Part shown: positions 8,726-29,334 of the stretch, piece by piece
Position numbering within the stretch: the first letter of the stretch is position 1
Layout of the letters: the number at the start of each line of letters is the position of its first letter
Assembly (NCBI RefSeq): GCF_003991155.1
Contig: NZ_CP031295.1
Direction: 5' to 3' (one strand)
Source of the DNA: Escherichia coli
GTDB taxonomy: Bacteria > Pseudomonadota > Gammaproteobacteria > Enterobacterales > Enterobacteriaceae
DNA: 64,000 bases
Made by a program: the position numbers and the translations under genes
The notes under the pieces: model-generated
The model's input: only the letters and a program-made list of their open reading frames with translations
Told to the model about the DNA's origin: nothing
The model's database searches: none

Positions 8726-9997
8726 TCAGAATGAAGCAATGGGGATCTCAGTCCATTGTGTTGTATACGAAGGCGAGAGCATTTCCCGTTTCATTTGCCA
8801 TTCAGGGGCGGTTCCTCGCCCCGCAAACCACACTTTCCCTTTTCCAGACTGGTTCAGTTCATCGAGTGTTTTCATTAACTTTTCGCTGTTTTTACGGGGC
8901 TGGATCTCATCAAATAATCCCGGCTGCGCTATACCCGATGGTGTGAAATCAGCCAGCATGACTCCTGCCTTCATATAGCGGTACCCTTCACGCCAGACAT
9001 GGTTTAACGCTCTGCATGCTGCGGCAATAATGTCCCGGCTGTCCTGTGTGGGTAATGGAAGCTTTTCCACAGCGGCATTGCTGTAACAGGGTTCTTTTAC
9101 TGCAAAGGGGGATGTCCGTACAAATGTCGTCACCTGCCGGCAATACTGACGCTCCCCACGTAGTTTCTCTGCGGCCCGCTCTGCATACTGAACAACAGCC
9201 TGGTGCATGGCATCTTTGTCTGTGATTCGTTCACCAAAACTGCGACTACAGACAATCTGCTGTTTTGCCGGTGGTGCTTCTTCCAGGGATATGCAGGACT
9301 CGCCGTTGAGTTCGCGTACCGTACGCTCAAGAATGACGCTGAAGTTTTTCCGGATGAATGCCGTGTTAGCCTGCGCCAGCTGCAGTGCTGTGTTAATACC
9401 CAGCGCATTCAGCTTTTCCGTCAGTCTGCGTCCTACTCCCCAGACCTCACCAACTGGCTGCAGCCCCAGTAGCTTCAAGATCCGATTACGGTTTTCTGCC
9501 TCCAGCGCGACCACACCGGAAAACTGTGGCCATTGCTTTGTTGCCCACTGTGCACTTTTAGCCAGCGTTTTTGTAGGCGCAATGCCCACCCCCATGGTGA
9601 GTCCTGTCCAGCTCTTTACCTGTTCCCTGAGCTGATGACCAAAAACCTCCGGAGAGATGCAATGATTTATCCCCCGCAAATCAATGAACATTTCATCAAT
9701 TGAGTAGGGCTCAACTGCGGGAGAAAGCGACTCCAGAACAGCCATGACCCGTTGGCTCATGCTGTGGTACAGCGCATAATTGCTGGAAAATACATGTATT
9801 TTCTTCTCCAGGCGCATCTGTCTCACCTGAAACCAGGGCTGCCCCATTCTGATGCCAAGGGCTTTTGCCTCCGGGCTGCGCGCGATCACACAGCCATCGT
9901 TATTGCTGAGTACGATGACCGGTTCGTTGCGAAGGTCCGGGCGGAAAACTTTTTCACATGAGGCGTAGAAACTGTTGATATCAGCCAGTGCAAACAT
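8726..9997 (-). CDS. impB: error-prone Y-family polymerase subunit (UmuC/ImpB family)
   Basis: MFALADINSFYASCEKVFRP... N-terminus typical of UmuC/MucB/ImpB; 423 aa. Confidence 0.9.
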   Translation of the reverse strand: MFALADINSFYASCEKVFRPDLRNEPVIVLSNNDGCVIARSPEAKALGIRMGQPWFQVRQMRLEKKIHVFSSNYALYHSMSQRVMAVLESLSPAVEPYSIDEMFIDLRGINHCISPEVFGHQLREQVKSWTGLTMGVGIAPTKTLAKSAQWATKQWPQFSGVVALEAENRNRILKLLGLQPVGEVWGVGRRLTEKLNALGINTALQLAQANTAFIRKNFSVILERTVRELNGESCISLEEAPPAKQQIVCSRSFGERITDKDAMHQAVVQYAERAAEKLRGERQYCRQVTTFVRTSPFAVKEPCYSNAAVEKLPLPTQDSRDIIAAACRALNHVWREGYRYMKAGVMLADFTPSGIAQPGLFDEIQPRKNSEKLMKTLDELNQSGKGKVWFAGRGTAPEWQMKREMLSPSYTTQWTEIPIASF

Positions 9998-16224: not shown

Positions 16225-16870
16225 TGTTCCTGATGTTGTTGTTCCTTTATCTGCTGCTCTGATTCTGACTACTGCAGTGTTGTTCTGTCTGCCGGGCGCA
16301 CCTTCGGCTCCCGGCTGCCTGGCGGCATCCGGTCGTCAGGCCCGACTCCGACAGGCAGCTGCTGGCGCACCCGCCAGTCTCCGCCGAACCCGCTGGCGCG
16401 GTTTCGGGCTGTCGCTACGGTCCGATGCGTGAAAACCCCGGGCTTGCAGCGACCGTTCCGGTCGCGCCACCCTTGTCGCGCCGTGGCCTGCGCTCCCGGC
16501 ATCCCGGCAAAAGGCCGCCGGGATGTAAGGGGCAACGCCGTTTCGCGCACGCGCTCTCCGTCGTTGCGGCGGGTCCCTGCTCATTGCCTGCCGGTGCCAC
16601 ACACCCGTATGAGTCCCTGTCGCCGGGGGCTGATACAGCCACAACCTGCCGCACTGACTGTCCAGGGTAAATGAACAGCCCACAAAATTTTTTACCCAAA
16701 ACCCGGTAAAAAATTTTGCGTTCTGCCCAGGACAGGTGCGTCAGGCCGTGGCAGTGATGCCCCTTGCGGCGAAGGTTCTCAAACGGGTGAAGTTCATACC
16801 ACAGGGAATACAGCAGCAGGTTCCCGCGAAACGTCAAAACCGCGGCTCCCGAAACTCAACGGGTGATGTT
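16225..16870 (+). repeat. GC-rich structured repeat, copy 1 (Frpo/ssi-like single-strand promoter candidate)
   Basis: About 650 bp near-identical to 19510-20185 and 24965-25608; internal palindrome AAAATTTTTTACC...GGTAAAAAATTTT at 16684-16718. Confidence 0.7.
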
Positions 16871-17097
16871 CTTTAAAAATCAGGATTTATTTCAGACTCC
16901 GGCAATACGCATTTATGTGTTCTGTCAGTCATCCGGCTGGCAGGTAATGAGAACGCAGGAACAGAAGGAGGAAAACACCGGAGAACGTCAGACGCAGATA
17001 TGAAAAAAGCAGGTCAGGGACCTGCTTAATCCACACCGCAGAGACTGCACGAACAGTCTTTACGGTTTCATTAATTAACGTCATAAGAGGCTAAATT

Positions 17098-17379: not shown

Positions 17380-18741
17380 ATGACATTAGCAGCAATCACC
17401 ATGACCGCCCCGGAAGCCGCCAGCCCTGTGCAGATGTACCGCGCGACCTACTCACCGGATGACAACAAACTGCGCCTGTATGCCGTGTCACGTCTTGACC
17501 CGGAGACGTATAAAAAAGTGCATGATGCCGGTTTCCGCTGGGCACCAAAACAGGCGCTGTTTGTCGCGCCAGCCTGGACACCGGGCCGGGAAGACGTGCT
17601 CCTCTCACTTGCCGGAGAGATTGAGGATGAAGACAGCACGCTCGCTGAACGTCAGGAAGCACGGGCGGAGCGGTTTACCGGATACAGCGGAAAGCGGGCC
17701 AGTGAATCCGCACAGGCACTTGATGAAGTGGAAAGACTGGCCGCGATGATCCCGCCCGGTCAGCCCATTCTTGTGGGGCATCACAGCGAACGCCGCGCCC
17801 GTCGTGATGCGCAGCGTATTGAAAACGGCATGAAACGAGCCGTGATGCTCTTTGAACGTGCGGAATACTGGGAAGAGCGGGCGCGGTCGGCACTGCTTCA
17901 CGCGAAGTATAAAGAACGTCCGGACGTTCGCTGGCGTCGTATCAAAAAAATCGAAGCTGATTTGCGCAAGGCTGAAAAGACCATCGCGCAGTCGCAGAAA
18001 TATCTGACGATGTGGCGGGCTGAATCGCTGGATCTGAATATGGCAAAACTCATCAGCAGTCATGACCATATCAGCGCCTGTTTCCCGCTGGATACGTATC
18101 CGCGCCCGGCAGAAAAAAGCCAGTATGAAGGAAGTCGATCGTTATGGTCGGCCCTGGATGATGACATCATCACCACGGAGCAGGCCCGCGAAATTGCGAT
18201 CCGCTGTCATGAACGGCAGATTCAGCGTCAGCAACGCTGGGTTAACCACTATCAGAACCGCCTGATCTATGAGCGTGCCATGCTGGACGAAAGCGGCGGC
18301 GTGGTTACCCGGACACAGGATTTTGAGCCGGGCGGACAGGTTTTCAGCCGGGGCGAGTGGCTGACTATCATCCGCGTGAACAAAAGCAACGGGGCGGTGA
18401 GTTCAGTCACAACGCCGAATTACAGTTTTCTCGGGTACAGCGGCACGATGAAAGTGACGCCCGATCGCATTACGGACTACAAAGCACCATCGGCAGAAGA
18501 GGCTGCCGTCGCCAGTCAGGCCGCTAAGCGTCCGCCGGTAGTCAACTATCCGGGGGAAGGTTTCCGGGAAATGACAAAGGCACAGTGGGCCGCCCTGCCC
18601 CGGGACTGTAAGGCCGTGCGCAGTGTGGCAGAAGCAGAAGACCACGGGGCATACCGGTACCGCCGCACAATGGACAATAATTTCCGCCTGGTGAATGTGT
18701 ATATCTCCGACATGAAAATCACGGAAATCCCACAGAAATAA
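17380..18741 (+). CDS. conserved leading-region protein (453 aa), unknown function
   Basis: Long ORF with GGAGAA RBS; Arg/Glu-rich central region; no catalytic motif recognised. Confidence 0.7.
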   Translation: MTLAAITMTAPEAASPVQMYRATYSPDDNKLRLYAVSRLDPETYKKVHDAGFRWAPKQALFVAPAWTPGREDVLLSLAGEIEDEDSTLAERQEARAERFTGYSGKRASESAQALDEVERLAAMIPPGQPILVGHHSERRARRDAQRIENGMKRAVMLFERAEYWEERARSALLHAKYKERPDVRWRRIKKIEADLRKAEKTIAQSQKYLTMWRAESLDLNMAKLISSHDHISACFPLDTYPRPAEKSQYEGSRSLWSALDDDIITTEQAREIAIRCHERQIQRQQRWVNHYQNRLIYERAMLDESGGVVTRTQDFEPGGQVFSRGEWLTIIRVNKSNGAVSSVTTPNYSFLGYSGTMKVTPDRITDYKAPSAEEAAVASQAAKRPPVVNYPGEGFREMTKAQWAALPRDCKAVRSVAEAEDHGAYRYRRTMDNNFRLVNVYISDMKITEIPQK

Positions 18742-19509: not shown

Positions 19510-20185
19510 GTTACTGATGTTGTTGTTCCTGCTACTGTTCTTCTTTTTCCTGCTGCTCTGATTCTGACTACTGCAGTGTTGTCCTGTCTGCCGGGCGCAC
19601 CTTCGGCTCCCGGCTGCCTGGCGGCATCCGGTCGTCAGGCCCGACTCCGACAGGCAGCTGCTGGCGCACCTGCCAGTCTCCGCCGAACCCGCTGGCGCGG
19701 TTTCGGGCTGTCGCTACGGTCCGATGCGTGAAAACCCCTGGCTTGCAGCGACCGTTCCGGTCGCGCCGCCTCTGTCGCGCCGTGGCCTGCGCTCCTGGCA
19801 TCCCGGCAAAAGACCGCCGGGATGTAAGGGGCAACGCCGTTTCGCAAACCGCGCTTCACGTCGTTGCGGCGGGTCCCTGCCCGTTGTTCTGTCCGGTGCC
19901 ATTCACCTGTTTAAGCCCCTGTCGCCGGGGGCAAAGACAGCCACAACCGTCTCCGCCAGTCCAGGGGTGAAATGTACATCCCGCAAAACTTTTTGCCCAA
20001 AAGCAGGCAAAAACTTTTGCGGGATGTACATTTCACCCCCGGACAGTCGTTTCCGTCCGTGGCAGTGATGCCCCTTGCGGCGAAGGTTCTCAAAAAGGTG
20101 ATGGTGAATACCGGAGGGAACAAAAGGCAGGTCCCCGCAAAACGTCAAAACCGCGGCTCCCGAAACTCAAAAGATGATGGGGGCT
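19510..20185 (+). repeat. GC-rich structured repeat, copy 2 (Frpo/ssi-like), upstream of ssb
   Basis: Near-identical to copies 1 and 3; long hairpin 19962-20041 (GGGGTGAAATGTACATCCCGCAAAACTTTTTGCC ... GGCAAAAACTTTTGCGGGATGTACATTTCACCCC) with a single central mismatch. Confidence 0.7.
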
Positions 20186-20212
20186 GAAAACATCAACAGA
20201 AGGAGGCACATC

Positions 20213-20766: not shown

Positions 20767-21042
<276 letters not shown>

Positions 21043-21106
21043 GAGAGGTGCCGGACGGGGATCACGTCCGGCAGACATACAACCACCCCGGTCAAAGGAG
21101 AAATAT

Positions 21107-23065
21107 ATGTCAGTTACAGAGTCTAAGGTAAAAACGGAGCGTAAATCCAGCCGTAAACCTGCAAAAACGCAGGAAACAGTCCTGTCGGCCCTGCTGGCGG
21201 AGACGGCTGAAGTGAGCGTGCCGCTGGCCTCGCTGATTAAGTCACCGCTGAATGTGCGCACGGTGCCGTATTCTGCGGAGTCCGTCAGCGAACTGGCAGA
21301 GTCCATTAAGGGCGTCGGCCTGCTGCAGAATCTGGTTGTTCATGCCCTGCCAGGTGACCGTTACGGTGTCGCCGCAGGCGGTCGCCGACTGGCAGCACTC
21401 AACATGCTGGCAGAGCGCAACATCCTTCCGGCTGACTGGCCTGTCCGCGTGAAGGTTATTCCGCAGGAACTGGCGACTGCCGCATCAATGACTGAAAACG
21501 GTCATCGTCGGGATATGCACCCTGCCGAACAGATTGCCGGATTCCGCGCAATGGCGCAGGAAGGCAAAACACCTGCACAAATCGGTGATTTGCTGGGCTA
21601 TTCACCCCGCCACGTTCAGCGAATGCTGAAACTGGCAGACCTTGCGCCTGTCATCCTCGATGCGCTGGCAGAAGACCGCATCACCACAGAGCACTGTCAG
21701 GCGCTGGCGCTGGAGAACGACACCGCGCGTCAGGTGCAGGTGTTTGAAGCCGCCTGTCAGTCGGGATGGGGCGGTAAACCGGAAGTACAGACCATTCGTC
21801 GTCTGGTGACCGAAAGTGAAGTGGCGGTGGCGGGGAACAGTAAATTCCGCTTCGTGGGGGCTGATGCCTTCTCGCCAGACGAACTGCGCACCGATTTGTT
21901 CAGCGACGACGAGGGTGGCTATGTGGACTGCGTGGCGCTCGATGCCGCCCTGCTGGAAAAACTCCAGGCTGTCGCAGAGTTCCTTCGGGAAGCCGAAGGC
22001 TGGGAATGGTGCGCCGGACGCATGGAGCCTGTCGGTGAGTGCCGTGAGGATGCCGGAACATACCGCTGTCTGCCGGAGCCGGAAGCGGTGCTGACCGAGG
22101 CGGAAGAAGAACGTCTGAACGAACTGATGGCACGTTACGACGCGCTGGAAAACCAGTGTGAGGAATCTGACCTGCTGGAAGCAGAAATGAAGCTGATGCG
22201 CTGCATGGCGAAGGTCAGAGCGTGGACGCCGGAGATGCGTGCCGGAGGTGGAGTGGTGGTGTCCTGGCGTTATGGAAACGTATGTGTCCAGCGTGGTGTG
22301 CAGTTACGCAGTGAGGATGATGCGGCTGACGACGCTGACCGCACGGAACAGGTGCAGGAAAAAGCGTCAGTGGAGGAAATCAGTCTGCCACTGCTGACGA
22401 AAATGTCCTCAGAGCGCACGCTGGCAGTCCAGGCAGCACTGATGCAGCAACCGGACAAATCCCTGACACTGCTGGCATGGACGCTCTGCCTGAATGTGTT
22501 TGGCAGCGGAGCGTACAGTAAACCAGCACAAATCAGCCTGGAATGTAAACATTATTCGCTGACCAGCGATGCGCCATCGGGGAAGGAAGGTGCCGCATTC
22601 ATGGCGCTGATGGCAGAAAAAGCCCGTCTTGCTGCCCTGTTACCGGAGGGATGGTCACGGGACATGACGACATTCCTGTCACTCAGTCAGGAGGTGCTGT
22701 TATCCCTGCTCAGTTTCTGCACCGCATGCAGCCTTAACGGTGTCCAGACCCGTGAGTATGGTCACACGTCACGCAGTCCGCTGGACACGCTGGAGAGCGC
22801 CATCGGTTTTCACATGCGCGACTGGTGGCAGCCGACAAAAGCAAACTTCTTCGGACACCTGAAAAAGCCGCAGATTATCGCAGCCCTGAATGAGGCAGGA
22901 CTGTCCGGTGCTGCACGGGATGCAGAGAAGATGAAGAAAGGTGATGCGGCTGAACATGCAGAGCACCATATGAAAGACAACCGCTGGGTGCCTGGCTGGA
23001 TGTGTGCACCACATCCACAGACGGATACCACTGAACGCACCGATAACCTGGCTGATGCCGCCTGA
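21107..23065 (+). CDS. large ParB/Srx-domain protein of the leading region (652 aa)
   Basis: N-terminal ParB-like motif GLLQNLVVHALPGDRYGVAAGGRRLAAL; long acidic and Cys-containing C-terminal extension. Confidence 0.8.
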   Translation: MSVTESKVKTERKSSRKPAKTQETVLSALLAETAEVSVPLASLIKSPLNVRTVPYSAESVSELAESIKGVGLLQNLVVHALPGDRYGVAAGGRRLAALNMLAERNILPADWPVRVKVIPQELATAASMTENGHRRDMHPAEQIAGFRAMAQEGKTPAQIGDLLGYSPRHVQRMLKLADLAPVILDALAEDRITTEHCQALALENDTARQVQVFEAACQSGWGGKPEVQTIRRLVTESEVAVAGNSKFRFVGADAFSPDELRTDLFSDDEGGYVDCVALDAALLEKLQAVAEFLREAEGWEWCAGRMEPVGECREDAGTYRCLPEPEAVLTEAEEERLNELMARYDALENQCEESDLLEAEMKLMRCMAKVRAWTPEMRAGGGVVVSWRYGNVCVQRGVQLRSEDDAADDADRTEQVQEKASVEEISLPLLTKMSSERTLAVQAALMQQPDKSLTLLAWTLCLNVFGSGAYSKPAQISLECKHYSLTSDAPSGKEGAAFMALMAEKARLAALLPEGWSRDMTTFLSLSQEVLLSLLSFCTACSLNGVQTREYGHTSRSPLDTLESAIGFHMRDWWQPTKANFFGHLKKPQIIAALNEAGLSGAARDAEKMKKGDAAEHAEHHMKDNRWVPGWMCAPHPQTDTTERTDNLADAA

Positions 23066-24270: not shown

Positions 24271-24491
24271 TGCGGCAACAATCACACGGATTTCCCGTGA
24301 ACGGTCTGAATGAGCGGATTATTTTCAGGGAAAGTGAGTGTGGTCAGCGTGCAGGTATATGGGCTATGATGTGCCCGGCGCTTGAGGCTTTCTGCCTCAT
24401 GACGTGAAGGTGGTTTGTTGCCGTGTTGTGTGGCAGAAAGAAGATAGCCCCGTAGTAAGTTAATTTTCATTAACCACCACGAGGCATCCCT

Positions 24492-24704
24492 ATGTCTAGT
24501 CCACATCAGGATAGCCTCTTACCGCGCTTTGCGCAAGGAGAAGAAGGCCATGAAACTACCACGAAGTTCCCTTGTCTGGTGTGTGTTGATCGTGTGTCTC
24601 ACACTGTTGATATTCACTTATCTGACACGAAAATCGCTGTGCGAGATTCGTTACAGAGACGGACACAGGGAGGTGGCGGCTTTCATGGCTTACGAATCCG
24701 GTAA
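24492..24704 (+). CDS. mok: mok-like overlapping leader ORF of the hok locus (flmC-like)
   Basis: ORF overlapping hok in another frame, as in hok/sok-type loci. Confidence 0.45.
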
Positions 24705-24708
24705 GTAG
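24550..24708 (+). CDS. hok: Hok-family membrane toxin (F FlmA-like, 52 aa)
   Basis: [52 protein letters not shown] read directly from 24550. Confidence 0.85.
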
Positions 24709-24964
24709 CAACCTGGAGGCGGGCGCAGGCCCGCCTTTTCAGGACTGATGCTGGTCTGACTACTGAAGCGCCTTTATAAAGGGGCTGCTGGTTCGCCGGT
24801 AGCCCCTTTCTCCTTGCTGATGTTGTACGGGCATGAACAACCTGACTTCAGGAAGGTCGTTTCCCTTCAGGAACGGGGATGAACGCGCGCCTGCGGCGCC
24901 CGTTCTTTTCCCCCGCCTTCTCTGGTTATGGCCTGTCAGAAATCACATCACCTTCCCTGTGATT

Positions 24965-25608
24965 ATTCTCTTTTTCTTCCTGCTCTGATTCTGACTACTG
25001 CAGTGTTGTCCTGTCTGCCGGGCGTACCTTCGGCTCCCGGCTGCCTGGCGGCATCCGGTCGTCAGGCCCGACTCCGACAGGCAGCTGCTGGCGCACCTGC
25101 CAGTCTCCGCCGAACCCGCTGGCGCGGTTTCGGGCTGTCGCTACGGTCCGATGCGTGAAAACCCCTGGCTTGCAGCGACCGTTCCGGTCGCGCCGCCTCT
25201 GTCGCGCCGTGACCTGCGCTCCCGGCATCCCGGCAAAAGGCGCCGGGATGTAAGGCGCAACGCCGTTTCGCAAACCGCGCTTCACGTCGTTGCGGCGGGT
25301 CCCTGCCCGTTGTTGTGTCCGGTGCCATTCACCAGTTTAAGCCCCTGTCGCCGGGGGCATAGACAGCCACAACCGTCTCCGCCAGTCCAGGGGTGAAATG
25401 CACATCCCGCAAAACTTTTTGCCCAGAAGCAGGCAAAAACTTTTGCGGTCTGCCCCCGGACAGTCGTTTCCGGCCGTGGCAGTGATGCCCCATGCGGCGA
25501 AGGTTCTCAAACAGGTGATGGTGAATACCGGAGGGAACAAAAGGCAGGTCCCCGCAAAACGTCAAAACCGCGGCTCCCGAAACTCAACAGATGATGGGGG
25601 CTGAAAAC
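24965..25608 (+). repeat. GC-rich structured repeat, copy 3 (Frpo/ssi-like)
   Basis: Near-identical to copy 2; palindrome GCAAAACTTTTTGCC...GGCAAAAACTTTTGC at 25407-25448. Confidence 0.7.
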
Positions 25609-25628
25609 CAGAGAGAGGAGAAAGCAGG

Positions 25629-25916
25629 ATGAGTACCCGAAATATCCACGTTAACACCGCGTCGTACACGCTTCTTGTTGCCGGGAAGAAAAAAAACACC
25701 GGGGAAGAGTGGGACGTCCTGGAATTCAGCAGCCTGACTGAGCTGAAAAAATATCGCAAAAGCCACCCGGAAAAGATGGCCTTCAGTTATAGCTACGCGC
25801 TCAGTCAGGGTGTGGATAAGCAGTTCCGCCATATCAACATTGCGGAAGCCGATCACTTCAAACAGTTCCTGCGTCAGATTAAGCGTGCCGGCCTCGATAT
25901 CCGGGCGATCTGCTGA
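25629..25916 (+). CDS. small conserved hypothetical protein (95 aa)
   Basis: First ORF after repeat copy 3; GAGAGGAG RBS. Confidence 0.6.
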   Translation: MSTRNIHVNTASYTLLVAGKKKNTGEEWDVLEFSSLTELKKYRKSHPEKMAFSYSYALSQGVDKQFRHINIAEADHFKQFLRQIKRAGLDIRAIC

Positions 25917-26033
25917 CCGGATGTGATGAATATCCCTCCTGATTGTTGCAATCTTGTTAATGGAGATCGGGGGGATGATATTAAGCGGAAAAATTTTTTA
26001 TTAAATTTATTCTTTCATAAAGGAGTAGCTGTT

Positions 26034-26855
26034 ATGCGATTAGCTTCCCGTTTTGGTCGGTATAATTCCATCCGCCGTGAACGTCCTTTAACGGATGATG
26101 AATTAATGCAGTTCGTGCCTTCGGTATTTTCCGGTGATAAACATGAGTCCCGGAGTGAACGTTATACGTATATTCCAACAATCAATATCATCAATAAGTT
26201 ACGTGATGAAGGTTTCCAGCCATTCTTTGCCTGTCAGAGTCGGATTCGTGATTTGGGACGTCGCGAATACAGTAAACATATGTTACGTCTTCGCAGGGAA
26301 GGGCATATTAACGGACAGGAAGTTCCTGAAATTATCCTGCTTAATTCACATGATGGTTCATCCAGTTATCAGATGATCCCCGGAATTTTTCGTTTTGTCT
26401 GCACAAATGGCCTGGTGTGCGGAAATAATTTTGGCGAAATCCGCGTTCCACATAAAGGTGATATTGTCGGGCAGGTTATCGAGGGAGCGTATGAAGTGCT
26501 CGGTGTCTTTGATAAGGTCACTGATAATATGGAGGCGATGAAAGAAATTCATCTTAACAGTGACGAGCAACATTTATTTGGCAGAGCTGCACTGATGGTC
26601 AGGTATGAAGATGAAAATAAAACGCCAGTGACACCTGAACAGATAATTACTCCCCGTCGTCGGGAAGACAAACAGAACGATCTCTGGACAACCTGGCAGC
26701 GGGTTCAGGAGAATATGATAAAAGGTGGATTATCGGGGCGAAGTGCCTCCGGGAAAAATACCAGGACAAGAGCCATTACAGGTATTGATGGTGATATAAG
26801 AATCAACAAGGCGTTATGGGTGATTGCCGAACAGTTCAGAAAGTGGAAGTCATGA
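26034..26855 (+). CDS. conserved leading-region protein (273 aa), unknown function
   Basis: ORF with AAGGAG RBS; start placed at MRLASRFGRY; family often annotated only as a DUF in F-like plasmids (recollection, unverified). Confidence 0.7.
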   Translation: MRLASRFGRYNSIRRERPLTDDELMQFVPSVFSGDKHESRSERYTYIPTINIINKLRDEGFQPFFACQSRIRDLGRREYSKHMLRLRREGHINGQEVPEIILLNSHDGSSSYQMIPGIFRFVCTNGLVCGNNFGEIRVPHKGDIVGQVIEGAYEVLGVFDKVTDNMEAMKEIHLNSDEQHLFGRAALMVRYEDENKTPVTPEQIITPRRREDKQNDLWTTWQRVQENMIKGGLSGRSASGKNTRTRAITGIDGDIRINKALWVIAEQFRKWKS

Positions 26856-26866
26856 TAATATAAGTA

Positions 26867-26894
26867 AAGCCCCGAAAAAATTTTCGGGGCTTTA
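26867..26894. terminator. bidirectional hairpin terminator
   Basis: AAAGCCCCGAAAAAATTTTCGGGGCTTT perfect palindrome between convergent genes. Confidence 0.65.
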
Positions 26895-27151
26895 CTTATA
26901 TTATCATTTTTCGGCATTGCTGTGTCGTCTGATATACCTCAATTTCATCAACCGGATTTCCGGTTGTCTGTAAATATTGTGCCCGCGAAAAATGGTCTGG
27001 CAGGAGGCTGCACAGTTACCGGGTATATATAAGATGGGTTCCCGCTTCGCGGGGCTTCGGCCAGTCAGTATTGTCACTCATATGATATTTTTGTGTGTGG
27101 CCTTCCATGCCGCTTTTGCGGCATAACCGGTATCTGACAATGTCTGTAAGA

Positions 27152-27661
27152 TTAATTGTTCTGCACGCTGTTAATTTCCGGAAGTGATTTCTTCGTGGCC
27201 GGAAGTCGGATACCTTTACTGCTTTTTATCCCAGTATAAATCCGGTAAACATCTGATGCGTAGGCAAGACGTCTCTGGTTCTGGCGTTCGGTTTTCCTGA
27301 ATCCGGCATTGTATGCACCAACGGCCTCCCAGGTGACGCCCCATTTTTTAAATGCTATTGCCAGATAATAAGCACCGGTATAAATGTTCATGCAGGGATC
27401 TGTTGTCAGATGTTCTGGCTTAATTCCGTAGCGGGCCAGTTCGTTAAAATGCTGGGAATCTACCTGCATCAGTCCGCTGCCATATCCCGTTACCGGATTA
27501 ATACCGATGGCATTAACCCGGTAACGGGATTCTTGCCATGATATTGCTCTCAGTAAATCAGGATCTATTTTGTAATCCCGGCCTGCAAGATCAAAGCAAT
27601 CAGTGGCCTGGCAGATCTCATTTATAAACATCAGGCAGATGGCTAACATCCATTTTTTCAT
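27152..27661 (-). CDS. lytic transglycosylase (F gene X / orf169-like)
   Basis: Signal peptide [12 protein letters not shown] and SLT motif ISWQESRY; sits next to oriT and is transcribed away from it. Confidence 0.85.
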
Positions 27662-28074
27662 TTTTCCACCTCTGGTGACTTTATCCGTAAATAATTTAAC
27701 CCACTCCACAAAAAGGCTCAACAGGTTGGTGGTTCTCACCACCAAAAGCACCACACCCCACGCAAAAACAAGTTTTTGCTGATTTTTCTTTATAAATAGA
27801 GAGTTATGACAAATTAGTTCTTCTTGCTCTCTTTGTGATATTTAAAAAAGCGGTGTTGGCGCAGCTACAACACCGCGCCGACACCGCTTTTTAGGGGTGG
27901 TACTGACTATTTTCATAAAAAACATCATCTTATATTAGGGGTGCTGCTAGCGGCGCGGTGTGTTTTTTTACAGGACGCCCCTGGGGGCGCTGCTAGCGGT
28001 GCGTCCCTGTTTGCATTATGAATTTTAGTGTTTCGAAATTAACTTTATTTTATGTTCAAAAAAGGTAATCTCTA
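27662..28074 (-). other. oriT: origin of transfer (oriT), F-type, nic site near 27752/27753 on the reverse strand
   Basis: Reverse complement of 27740-27775 reads TTTGCGTGGGGTGTGGTGCTTTTGGTG (F nic region as recalled); inverted repeats and AT-rich tracts between gene X and traM. Confidence 0.85.
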
Positions 28075-28458
28075 ATGGCTAAGGTGAACCTGTATATCAG
28101 CAATGATGCCTATGAAAAAATAAATGCGATTATTGAGAAGCGTCGACAGGAAGGGGCAAGGGAAAAAGATGTCAGTTTTTCAGCAACAGCTTCAATGCTT
28201 CTTGAACTGGGGCTTCGTGTACATGAGGCTCAGATGGAGCGTAAAGAGTCTGCATTTAATCAGACTGAGTTTAATAAATTGCTTCTTGAATGCGTTGTAA
28301 AAACACAATCATCAGTAGCGAAAATTTTGGGTATTGAGTCTCTCAGTCCTCATGTCTCCGGAAATCCAAAGTTTGAATATGCCAATATGGTTGAAGATAT
28401 CAGGGAGAAGGTATCATCTGAGATGGAACGATTTTTTCCAAAAAATGATGATGAATAA
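28075..28458 (+). CDS. traM: TraM relaxosome accessory protein
   Basis: MAKVNLYISNDAYEKINAIIEKRRQEGAREKDVSFSATASMLLELGLR... matches F TraM. Confidence 0.95.
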   Translation: MAKVNLYISNDAYEKINAIIEKRRQEGAREKDVSFSATASMLLELGLRVHEAQMERKESAFNQTEFNKLLLECVVKTQSSVAKILGIESLSPHVSGNPKFEYANMVEDIREKVSSEMERFFPKNDDE

Positions 28459-28564
28459 AAGAAATTTGACTTCGTTCAAATATCAGAGTTTTTATGATTT
28501 AAAAAGGTGACAGTACGAAAGATAATTAGTATATTAATTACGTGGTTAATGCCACGTTAAAATT

Positions 28565-28650
28565 TGAATTTGAAAATCGCCGATGCAGGGAGTTCTCTCC
28601 TCCCTGCATCGACTGTCCATAGAATCCTTTGTGAGGAGGTTCCTATGTAT
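28565..28650 (-). ncRNA. finP: FinP antisense RNA (complementary to the traJ leader)
   Basis: Stem-loop GATGCAGGGAG...CTCCCTGCATC in the traJ 5' UTR overlapping the traJ RBS; position as in F-like plasmids; boundaries approximate. Confidence 0.5.
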
Positions 28651-29334
28651 CCGATGGATCGTATTCAACAAAAACATGCTCGTCAAATAGATCTGCTGGA
28701 AAATCTGACGGCAGTTATTCAGGATTATCCAAATCCAGCCTGTATCAGGGACGAAACTGGAAAATTTATTTTTTGCAATACGCTGTTTCATGAGTCATTT
28801 CTTACACAAGATCAAAGTGCTGAAAAATGGCTTCTGTCGCAGAGAGATTTTTGTGAATTGATCTCTGTCACAGAGATGGAAGCATACAGGAATGAGCATA
28901 CGCATCTTAATCTTGTAGAGGATGTTTTTATTCAGAACAGATTCTGGACAATATCTGTCCAGTCATTTCTTAATGGACACAGAAATATTATTCTGTGGCA
29001 ATTTTATGATGCTGCTCATGTTCGTCATAAAGACAGTTATAATCAAAAAACGATTGTCAGTGATGATATCAGAAATATAATCAGAAGAATGAGTGATGAT
29101 TCTTCTGTATCATCATATGTAAATGATGTCTTTTACTTATATAGCACCGGAATCAGTCATAATGCTATAGCAAGAATATTAAATATATCCATCTCCACAT
29201 CAAAGAAACACGCATCTCTGATATGCGACTACTTCTCTGTTTCTAATAAAGATGAGTTAATTATCTTACTCTACAATAAAAAGTTTATTTATTATTTATA
29301 CGAGAAGGCTATGTGTATCATAAATACGCGTTAA
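28645..29334 (+). CDS. traJ: TraJ transfer activator
   Basis: MYPMDRIQQKHARQIDLLENLTAVIQDYPNPACIRDETGKF... matches F TraJ; GAGGAGG RBS. Confidence 0.9.
   Translation: MYPMDRIQQKHARQIDLLENLTAVIQDYPNPACIRDETGKFIFCNTLFHESFLTQDQSAEKWLLSQRDFCELISVTEMEAYRNEHTHLNLVEDVFIQNRFWTISVQSFLNGHRNIILWQFYDAAHVRHKDSYNQKTIVSDDIRNIIRRMSDDSSVSSYVNDVFYLYSTGISHNAIARILNISISTSKKHASLICDYFSVSNKDELIILLYNKKFIYYLYEKAMCIINTR

Follow-up and report, generated by a model that had tools for sequence, protein, structure and literature searches.

What do two genes situated near the transfer origin (oriT) of an IncF plasmid do in the cell that they enter? The window analysed here, a stretch of 64,000 nucleotides from an Escherichia coli IncF plasmid, contains ygeA (orf95, yubO) at positions 25629–25916 on the + strand, coding for a basic 95-aa protein (pI 9.6), and ygeB (orf273, yubP) at 26034–26855 on the same strand, coding for a 273-aa protein of the Pfam family DUF932 that is likewise basic (pI 9.25). 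The names orf95 and orf273 are those of the older F literature. The ATG of ygeB at 26034 is preceded by a ribosomal binding site, AAGGAG, at 26020–26025 (+ strand), 8 nt before the start codon as read from the sequence. Upstream of ygeA the order is psiB, psiA, hok/sok (Pfam) and the third copy of a long direct repeat, with sok at 24376–24552 (Rfam), placing the hok/sok module 1 kb upstream of ygeA-ygeB. Downstream of ygeB follow a perfect palindrome, a spacer of about 245 nt without annotation, gene X, the nic site and traM, the next gene past nic, which starts at 28075. Gene X (orf169, ygfA, yubQ), located at 27152–27661 on the - strand, encodes an SLT lytic transglycosylase (Pfam SLT, E 1.8e-22); it is convergent with ygeB and constitutes context outside the ygeA-ygeB operon. 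The F-type nic region at 27742–27763 on the - strand is an exact and unique match to GCGTGGGGTGTGGTGCTTTTGG, which we take to be the nic sequence of the F oriT.

Since nic is on the minus strand, the minus strand is the transferred one, entering 5'-first toward lower coordinates, and with both genes on the + strand it is also the template for ygeA and ygeB. Counted from nic, the 5' end of the transferred strand, ygeB ends at about 0.9 kb, ygeA starts at about 2.1 kb, and the far end of repeat copy 3 is about 2.8 kb away. The layout given in the original prediction is borne out: both ORFs are found at the positions where it had put them, they follow repeat copy 3 (24951–25608), no other leading-region gene separates them from gene X and oriT as located by the SLT match and nic, and at 0.9–2.1 kb from nic they enter the recipient very early, within seconds.

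The module has been described before. Going by near-identity and by a shared gene order with respect to Frpo1, gene X and oriT, it is the ygeA/ygeB (yubO/yubP) pair of the F plasmid, and the idea of an undescribed two-gene module had to be given up. YgeA is identical to its F orthologue at 93 of 95 residues (98%) and YgeB at 270 of 273 (99%), and the DNA is 99% identical to plasmid F (NC_002483) over 1.6 kb. The pair is already known and also very common: the 1.7 kb around ygeA-ygeB agree at 100% identity with pAPEC-1 and with many further plasmids of E. coli and Shigella, and at least 5000 PLSDB records match the region, 2671 of which span most of the query. With 98–99% identity, the expression and the phenotypes of Frpo1 and ygeA deletions reported for F should be transferable to the plasmid studied here.

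The repeat upstream of ygeA is about 650 nt long and is present in three direct copies, at 16225–16880, 19524–20191 and 24951–25608, which are 88% identical per column across the three copies. The third copy ends 20 nt before the ygeA ATG, and the minus strand of 25240–25625, taken as DNA, folds into one long imperfect hairpin (-110 kcal/mol, z -10.2), placing the hairpin of copy 3 in the transferred strand. By homology to F, copy 3 is Frpo1, the presumptive single-strand promoter driving ygeA-ygeB; Frpo1 is reportedly the promoter on single-stranded DNA described by Masai and Arai. Both the template strand and the hairpin-forming Frpo sequence upstream place ygeA and ygeB among the Frpo-controlled leading genes. 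The homologous Frpo1 sequence of F is needed for YgeA production in transconjugants, where YgeA-sfGFP is visible before conversion to double-stranded DNA and fades 25–35 min later, and donors show no detectable signal (Couturier et al. 2023, PMC9849209). Gene X of F, encoded on the opposite strand, is for that reason not expressed until the DNA has become double-stranded (PMC9849209). After donor elimination, RNA-seq found Frpo1-regulated transcripts to be enriched specifically in recipients (PMC12672017), and at the ygeB locus of F, transcription from Frpo1 is reported to serve in addition as the primer for synthesis of the complementary strand (2026 preprint 10.64898/2026.01.09.698686).

Overlapping the TGA stop codon of ygeB is a perfect 56-nt palindrome (26852–26907, both strands), with arms of 27 nt each (26852–26878 and 26881–26907) that are 100% complementary around a 2-nt centre. 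As RNA it folds with -39 kcal/mol (z -13.6), and none of 200 shuffled sequences folds as well. On the + strand it has the features of an intrinsic terminator, namely a 26–27-bp stem with a GC core, then UCAUUUUU, with a run of five U after the palindrome, and it looks like a good candidate for the terminator of the ygeA-ygeB transcript. On the - strand the GC core is trailed solely by the U-rich symmetric arm, and a bidirectional terminator is therefore plausible but weaker in that direction. The perfect bidirectional terminator placed at 26867–26894 in the original prediction is thus a real and in fact longer palindrome, whose action in both directions is the less certain part. The palindrome also forms a hairpin in the transferred strand. 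It is followed by a conserved spacer with four small hairpins (26908–27151) that reaches to the stop codon of gene X; palindrome and spacer are present in more than 4000 plasmids, and 4145 plasmids cover at least 80% of 26856–27151, nearly always without an annotated feature. In the transferred strand the spacer has a fold z of -3.6, and a search of the spacer and region against Rfam gave no family, the sole matches being sub-threshold hairpins at the palindrome.

These elements combine into a regulatory logic that we regard as very probable. The minus strand would enter 5'-first from nic at about 27752, and Frpo1 and both genes should be inside after about 2.8 kb, in a few seconds. The Frpo1 repeat would then form a long hairpin serving RNA polymerase as a promoter on single-stranded DNA, ygeA and ygeB would be transcribed transiently as far as the palindrome, and synthesis of the complementary strand would switch expression off at the conversion to double-stranded DNA.

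The deletions proposed as a check in the original prediction have largely been published for F, and loss of Frpo1 or of ygeA gives a clear conjugation defect (PMC9849209). The transconjugant frequency is 92.6% for the wild type, 25.2% for the Frpo1 deletion, 3.9% for the ygeA deletion, 14.5% for the deletion of Frpo1 and ygeA, and 32.7% for the deletion of Frpo1 and ygeAB; this corresponds to 4- to 24-fold fewer transconjugants on deletion of Frpo1 or ygeA, and ygeB alone could not be deleted (PMC9849209). These phenotypes come from isogenic K-12 matings, where restriction is no barrier, and may be due in part to Frpo1 transcription acting in cis, or to polar effects; the reported F strains include none with Frpo1 intact and both ygeA and ygeB cleanly deleted.

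The 273-aa protein had been described as lacking any assignable motif, which is wrong, since YgeB matches DUF932 (PF06067) over the full length of the model, with residues 36–262 aligned to model positions 1–227 of 227 (E 4.8e-52, 177.4 bits against a cut-off of 23). It also matches phrog_12094 (E 1.6e-137), which has no functional annotation. The NCBIfam entry TIGR03299 (phage/plasmid-like protein) is matched partially, with 19.5 bits against a cut-off of 110.7, and judging from these scores it is a distant sister subfamily of which YgeB is not a member. At 90% identity the DUF932 candidates form 6285 clusters, at 50% identity the family has 5590 representatives, and it is the third-largest leading-region family with a median position of 1 from oriT (Samuel et al. 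2024, PMC11541004, supplementary file 3). A search of the literature on yubP, yubO, yfjQ, yafZ, TIGR03299, PF06067 and DUF945 found no functional study, and the earlier remark that neither protein has an assigned molecular function stands. DUF932 fusions to autotransporter, GTPase, RadC, TraI_C or TrbI fragments look like chimeras of neighbouring genes, created by deletion or assembly, and were discarded as clues to function.

In an alignment of 113 DUF932 sequences (37–86% identity) residues H82, C123, N125, H140 and E226 of YgeB are invariant. With phage homologues added, down to 26% identity, R72, H82, N104, D107, R120, C123, N125, H140, Q225 and N258 are still invariant, and E99, H106, R209, D212, E226 and R246 are nearly so. 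In a protein this basic, the conserved residues suggest an active site or a metal site, with arginines for the binding of phosphate, rather than a DNA mimic. In the AlphaFold2 model built from the 113-sequence alignment (pLDDT 93.3, pTM 0.88) an alpha/beta subdomain, whose sheet has five to six strands, precedes a bundle of long helices. Searches of PDB chains with the sequences of YgeA and YgeB and with a YgeB profile gave chance-level matches only, and neither predicted structure has a meaningful neighbour among solved structures; a confident housekeeping fold, which the original prediction had named as speaking against it, is thus not what either protein has. The C-terminal domain of TnsE and the type III secretion chaperone-like alpha/beta fold match YgeB partially and weakly and not as a whole protein, and the His, Cys and Asn residues of YgeB have no described counterpart in them; YgeB was therefore not assigned to this group. 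The motifs PD-(D/E)XK, HNH, 'GNHD' of metallophosphoesterases and 'H-x16-C-x-N' of LD-transpeptidases, considered as candidates, are unsupported by the fold search. A Foldseek search of YgeB against viral structures returned just uncharacterised DUF932/TIGR03299 proteins, with Hdf of phage P1 absent from the top 50. Neither YgeA nor YgeB matches PADLOC or a known anti-defence domain (Pfam, PADLOC), no toxin or antitoxin domain of type II systems was found in either protein (Pfam, NCBIfam, PADLOC), and there was no membership in the known anti-restriction families (ArdA, ArdB/KlcA, ArdC and Ocr-like DNA mimics).

YgeA gives no match in Pfam, NCBIfam, PHROGs, PADLOC or PDB and no fold match, and a profile search finds it in 229 clusters, all from Enterobacteriaceae, with identities down to 44%. 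Among 80 species-level DUF932 loci, collected with a profile of 13 sequences and limited to Enterobacterales, a YgeA homologue is located within 6 kb in three, a frequency at odds with the conserved adjacency of type II toxin-antitoxin genes, and an Frpo-like sequence is present in at least seven. A Klebsiella michiganensis plasmid has an Frpo-like repeat directly 5' of DUF932, without ygeA. In IncF plasmids of Klebsiella/Enterobacter (loci L009–L011) one Frpo copy has ygeA as its first gene, followed by genes for a 154-aa protein, a 66-aa protein, an N6-methyltransferase, a 111-aa protein and others, with 4–7 genes and extra Frpo copies between ygeA and DUF932. Further Frpo copies head other cassettes, including one in which DUF932 comes after an unrelated 97-aa gene. 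In these plasmids the repeat runs into the first ~14 codons, and the N-terminus MHTRNVNVKTAAQES is for this reason common to different genes; the 97-aa gene product shares only its first ~13 residues with YgeA and was rejected as a paralogue. The separation of ygeA and DUF932 into different Frpo units indicates that the architecture is a set of Frpo-driven cassettes, in which DUF932 is, on the evidence of gene order, the stable oriT-proximal anchor and YgeA a lineage-specific first gene. YgeA is rarely found near DUF932, and a dedicated partnership would therefore be limited to one lineage; as a two-gene module the original prediction does not hold, ygeA-ygeB not being a conserved pair. Truncated YgeA variants were set aside as candidates for natural ygeA-minus plasmids, as those examined are cut by contig ends or by IS66, on contigs that do not reach far enough to show ygeB.

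The genes around DUF932 in 79 loci include RadC (43), CbeA (27), ArdB (20), GTPase (20), SLT (7), TraM (7) and relaxase (7). In a betaproteobacterial MOBF plasmid the order is SSB, DUF932, DUF3560, KleA and RadC. DUF932 is also present in 27 phage records, among them the Rak2/GAP32/CBB group with genomes of about 350 kb, where the homologue is 36–42% identical and located 10–20 kb from the start of the record; in jumbo phage CBB the gene belongs to the 22.5-kb terminal repeat, surrounded by small ORFs that all share one strand, and in Roseobacter phage CRP-235 it comes third when the genes are counted from the end. By analogy between these sites, the common theme may be the first-entering, early-expressed part of invading DNA. 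For distant representatives most contigs are shorter than 3 kb, which limits the context. In Variovorax under phage attack, alleles of an ICE-borne DUF932 gene with start-codon loss and missense changes rose to 50–70%, alongside mutations in trbE, the T4SS ATPase gene, which the authors link to phage entry (preprint 10.1101/2025.06.20.660599). The DUF932 alleles would fit the view that an inhibitor of host defence was lost, or else a factor needed for T4SS expression, and as evidence they are circumstantial.

We propose that ygeA-ygeB is an oriT-proximal operon of zygotic induction in F-like plasmids with an early role in establishment or anti-defence, in which YgeB is an enzyme-like effector and YgeA a brake, and we give this whole package a probability of roughly 45%, that is, somewhat below even. 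YgeB should be the conserved effector because its family is large, has a median position of 1 from oriT, and keeps invariant polar residues down to 26% identity. We infer that it would be an enzyme depending on a metal or on Cys/His residues, which would work in the new cell on a nucleic acid or a nucleotide, and that YgeA, a lineage-specific small basic accessory, would temper it in the E. coli-type IncF plasmids. YgeA may be a brake since deletion of ygeA is worse than loss of expression of both genes (PMC9849209). The role of YgeB is most likely to protect or establish the DNA that comes in, through anti-defence or DNA processing, and a function at the entry stage is suggested because DUF932 adjoins RadC, ArdB and SSB and sits in the terminal repeat of a jumbo phage. 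Points against the package are that the phenotype appears in isogenic matings, that the pairing is not conserved, and that PADLOC and anti-defence searches gave no match.

The alternative that survives best, although we consider it unlikely, is a function in cis, where the Frpo1 transcript would be the RNA primer for a complementary strand toward oriT, the palindrome would set the end of the RNA, and the proteins would be dispensable passengers in ordinary matings. Of the conversion events seen at the ygeB locus in F, 48% take place in the first 90 s, and rifampicin abolishes them (preprint 10.64898/2026.01.09.698686), the deletion of Frpo1 (25%) is about equal in effect to that of Frpo1 and ygeAB (33%) (PMC9849209), and the perfect 27-bp hairpin in the transferred strand lies at the end of the unit, as priming would have it. 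A primer, however, needs no two ORFs under purifying selection, and YgeB is kept with invariant polar residues across thousands of elements, including phages with double-stranded DNA. The deletion of ygeA with Frpo1 intact is moreover far worse than the deletion of Frpo1, indicating an effect at the protein level (PMC9849209). Priming in cis can coexist with the establishment operon proposed here.

The drop to 3.9% on deletion of ygeA, against 32.7% when Frpo1 and ygeAB are all removed, with partial relief by removal of Frpo1 (14.5%), would also be expected of a toxin-antidote-like pair, in which one protein does harm and the other counteracts it for addiction or self-limitation, as would the failure to delete ygeB alone (PMC9849209) and the arrangement of a small gene followed by a large one in a single operon. 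Such a pair is quite improbable, as the toxin and antitoxin domains looked for in Pfam, NCBIfam and PADLOC are missing, the genes are paired in 3 of the 80 DUF932 loci and belong to different Frpo units in Klebsiella-type IncF plasmids, and the two deletions both seem to do harm, contrary to what a simple two-part model would lead one to expect. Neither protein is detectable in established donors (PMC9849209), making post-segregational killing unlikely, and a real hok/sok module is already present 1 kb upstream.

Equally improbable is that DUF932 promotes expression of the conjugation machinery, and thereby a faster switch from transconjugant to donor, with no part in protecting DNA. The start-codon loss that reached 50–60% in Variovorax after phage attack alongside the trbE mutations (preprint 10.1101/2025.06.20.660599) could be read in this way, and the 3-h transconjugant frequencies of F include secondary transfer, so that a delay in becoming donors might give a several-fold drop. 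The structure search detected no fold of a DNA-binding regulator, however, and DUF932 is abundant in genomic islands and in phages that have no T4SS, while YgeA, and by way of the common operon probably YgeB, is off in established donors (PMC9849209). The least probable reading, a classical anti-restriction protein of the DNA-mimic or the ArdB/Hdf kind, agrees with the label given to DUF932 by Samuel et al. 2024 (PMC11541004, supplementary file 3) and with its frequent location in islands directly 5' of an ArdB/KlcA gene, the DUF932 stop codon and the next start codon overlapping in locus L002, but the label rests on 1 of 4661 members matching P1 Hdf by Foldseek (PMC11541004) and was not reproduced in the search of viral structures described above, no ArdA, ArdB or ArdC match was found in Pfam or PDB, YgeB is basic whereas DNA mimics are acidic, and the phenotype is present in isogenic matings (PMC9849209).

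Returning to the establishment operon, a bolder extension, which we put forward as speculative and rather unlikely, is that DUF932 constitutes a new class of enzymes with a fold unlike solved structures, carried in the first-entering segment of plasmids, integrative elements, islands and jumbo phages, which would disarm a host response or process the entering DNA. Its centre would be formed by Cys/His residues or a metal, with H82, H106, C123 and H140, joined by N104, D107, N125 and several arginines, and YgeA would be a dedicated brake in the E. coli-type IncF plasmids. DUF932, with its ~5600 clusters at 50% identity, is among the largest uncharacterised families on mobile DNA, and its function would explain a step common to the entry of plasmids, islands and phages and might offer a target against plasmid establishment. 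IncF plasmids carry much of the antibiotic resistance of Enterobacteriaceae, and of all parts of the F leading region, the Frpo1 unit is the only one for which published assays show a clear drop in transfer on its loss. New here are the confident model of YgeB, a protein without a solved relative, the short list of residues for mutation, and the finding that YgeA is no general partner of DUF932.

Among known systems, the first-entering DNA of phages, with early genes for host takeover as in the first-step-transfer region of T5 or in the terminal repeats of large phages, offers a parallel to the place of DUF932 as first gene after oriT, in an analogy of position alone. In enterobacterial chromosomes DUF932 is found in CP4-57-like islands, between a YfjP-type GTPase gene and ArdB, RadC, DUF987 and CbeA/CbtA. 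YfjQ and YafZ (UPF0380) of the K-12 cryptic prophages belong to the same Pfam family and have the same length, with 63–68% identity in enterobacterial chromosomes, and their islands carry a leading-region-like set of the ArdB antirestriction gene, RadC, DUF987 and CbeA/CbtA; they differ from the plasmid locus in that YgeA is missing, that the YfjP-type GTPase gene precedes, and that most loci have no adjacent oriT, SLT or Frpo. Plasmid F is the closest relative, with the same order of Frpo repeat, ygeA, ygeB, palindrome, gene X and oriT, and with few substitutions, e.g. R210 here against W in F; the palindrome is kept in F minus one base of the loop, which is accordingly one base longer here, and the F literature names two Frpo repeats whereas three of this type are present in the plasmid studied here. 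The Frpo2 operon ssb-psiB-psiA of F and ColIb-P9 has a near-identical promoter repeat and the same regulatory logic, its genes being templated by the transferred strand and transiently expressed in the recipient. Its products have known roles in single-strand DNA binding and SOS inhibition, whereas those of the Frpo1 unit have no assigned function, and their deletion barely alters the transfer frequency, while the phenotype of the Frpo1 unit is the stronger of the two.

The window contains three repeats (about 650 nt each) of the Frpo single-strand promoter type, not two, located at 16225-16880, 19524-20191 and 24951-25608. Copy 1 is followed by a small ORF and then by a gene for a protein of 453 aa (17380-18741), copy 2 by ssb, and copy 3 by ygeA (orf95) and ygeB, the latter encoding a DUF932 protein. 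The counterpart of the 453-aa gene at the same position on the related contig L110 has a DUF3560 domain and is followed by a methyltransferase-like gene. On L110 a repeat is located after the methyltransferase and leads straight into ygeA, which suggests that recombination between Frpo copies gives rise to deletions. In three Enterobacter/Klebsiella IncF plasmids (L009-L011) the Frpo-like repeats, for example those at 5530-5897, 8556-8905 and 9977-10325 in L009, take in the ribosome-binding site as well as roughly 14 codons at the start of the gene. Because they run into the coding start, unrelated genes downstream of them share the N-terminal peptide MHTRNVNVKTAAQES, and this extension of the repeat into the genes is a cassette-like route that brings new genes under the single-strand promoter.

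Within ygeA there is a 14-nt inverted repeat (25730-25743 and 25799-25812), with arms that are 93% complementary and separated by 55 nt. P0153, a rare database variant of YgeA with two members, is an in-frame inversion of the segment between the arms, and a simulated inversion that included the imperfect arms recovered it except for two residues encoded by the arms. Other rare variants (P0146, P0147 and P0151) show different internal rearrangements or frameshift patches. A run of eight A residues at 25689-25696, coding for KKK and identical in F, is a possible slippage site.

The spacer of 245 nt (26908-27151) between the palindrome overlapping the ygeB stop codon and the stop codon of gene X, which encodes an SLT lytic transglycosylase, is kept in about 4100 plasmids and is almost never annotated. 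The folded transferred strand shows four small hairpins here (z -3.6), and the spacer may serve as a primosome site or for single-strand initiation. In Klebsiella-type IncF plasmids the gap between the DUF932 and SLT genes is only about 29 nt. DUF932 homologues are also found near the left end of jumbo phage genomes of about 350 kb, namely in CBB (KU574722, 17906-18793), where the gene lies inside an annotated terminal redundant repeat of 22.5 kb, in GAP32 (NC_019401, 19933-20721) and in the phage record LT960551 (10301-11101).

Just past Frpo copy 1, the minus strand at 17004-17103 matches, above the Rfam gathering score, the antisense RNA AS-pc01, first described in plasmid pHK01. The regulatory RNAs expected of an F-like plasmid are present as the antitoxin RNA sok with the hok/flm ORF (24376-24708, ORF at 24529-24708) and as the traJ 5' UTR with antisense FinP (28540-28651). 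A ParB-like leading-region protein of 684 aa with ParB_N and HTH_ParB domains (21011-23065) occupies the position of the ParB/RepB/Spo0J-family gene in the leading region of F, and this F counterpart may be yfjB. According to a 2026 preprint, yfjB is a zygotically induced host-reprogramming factor.
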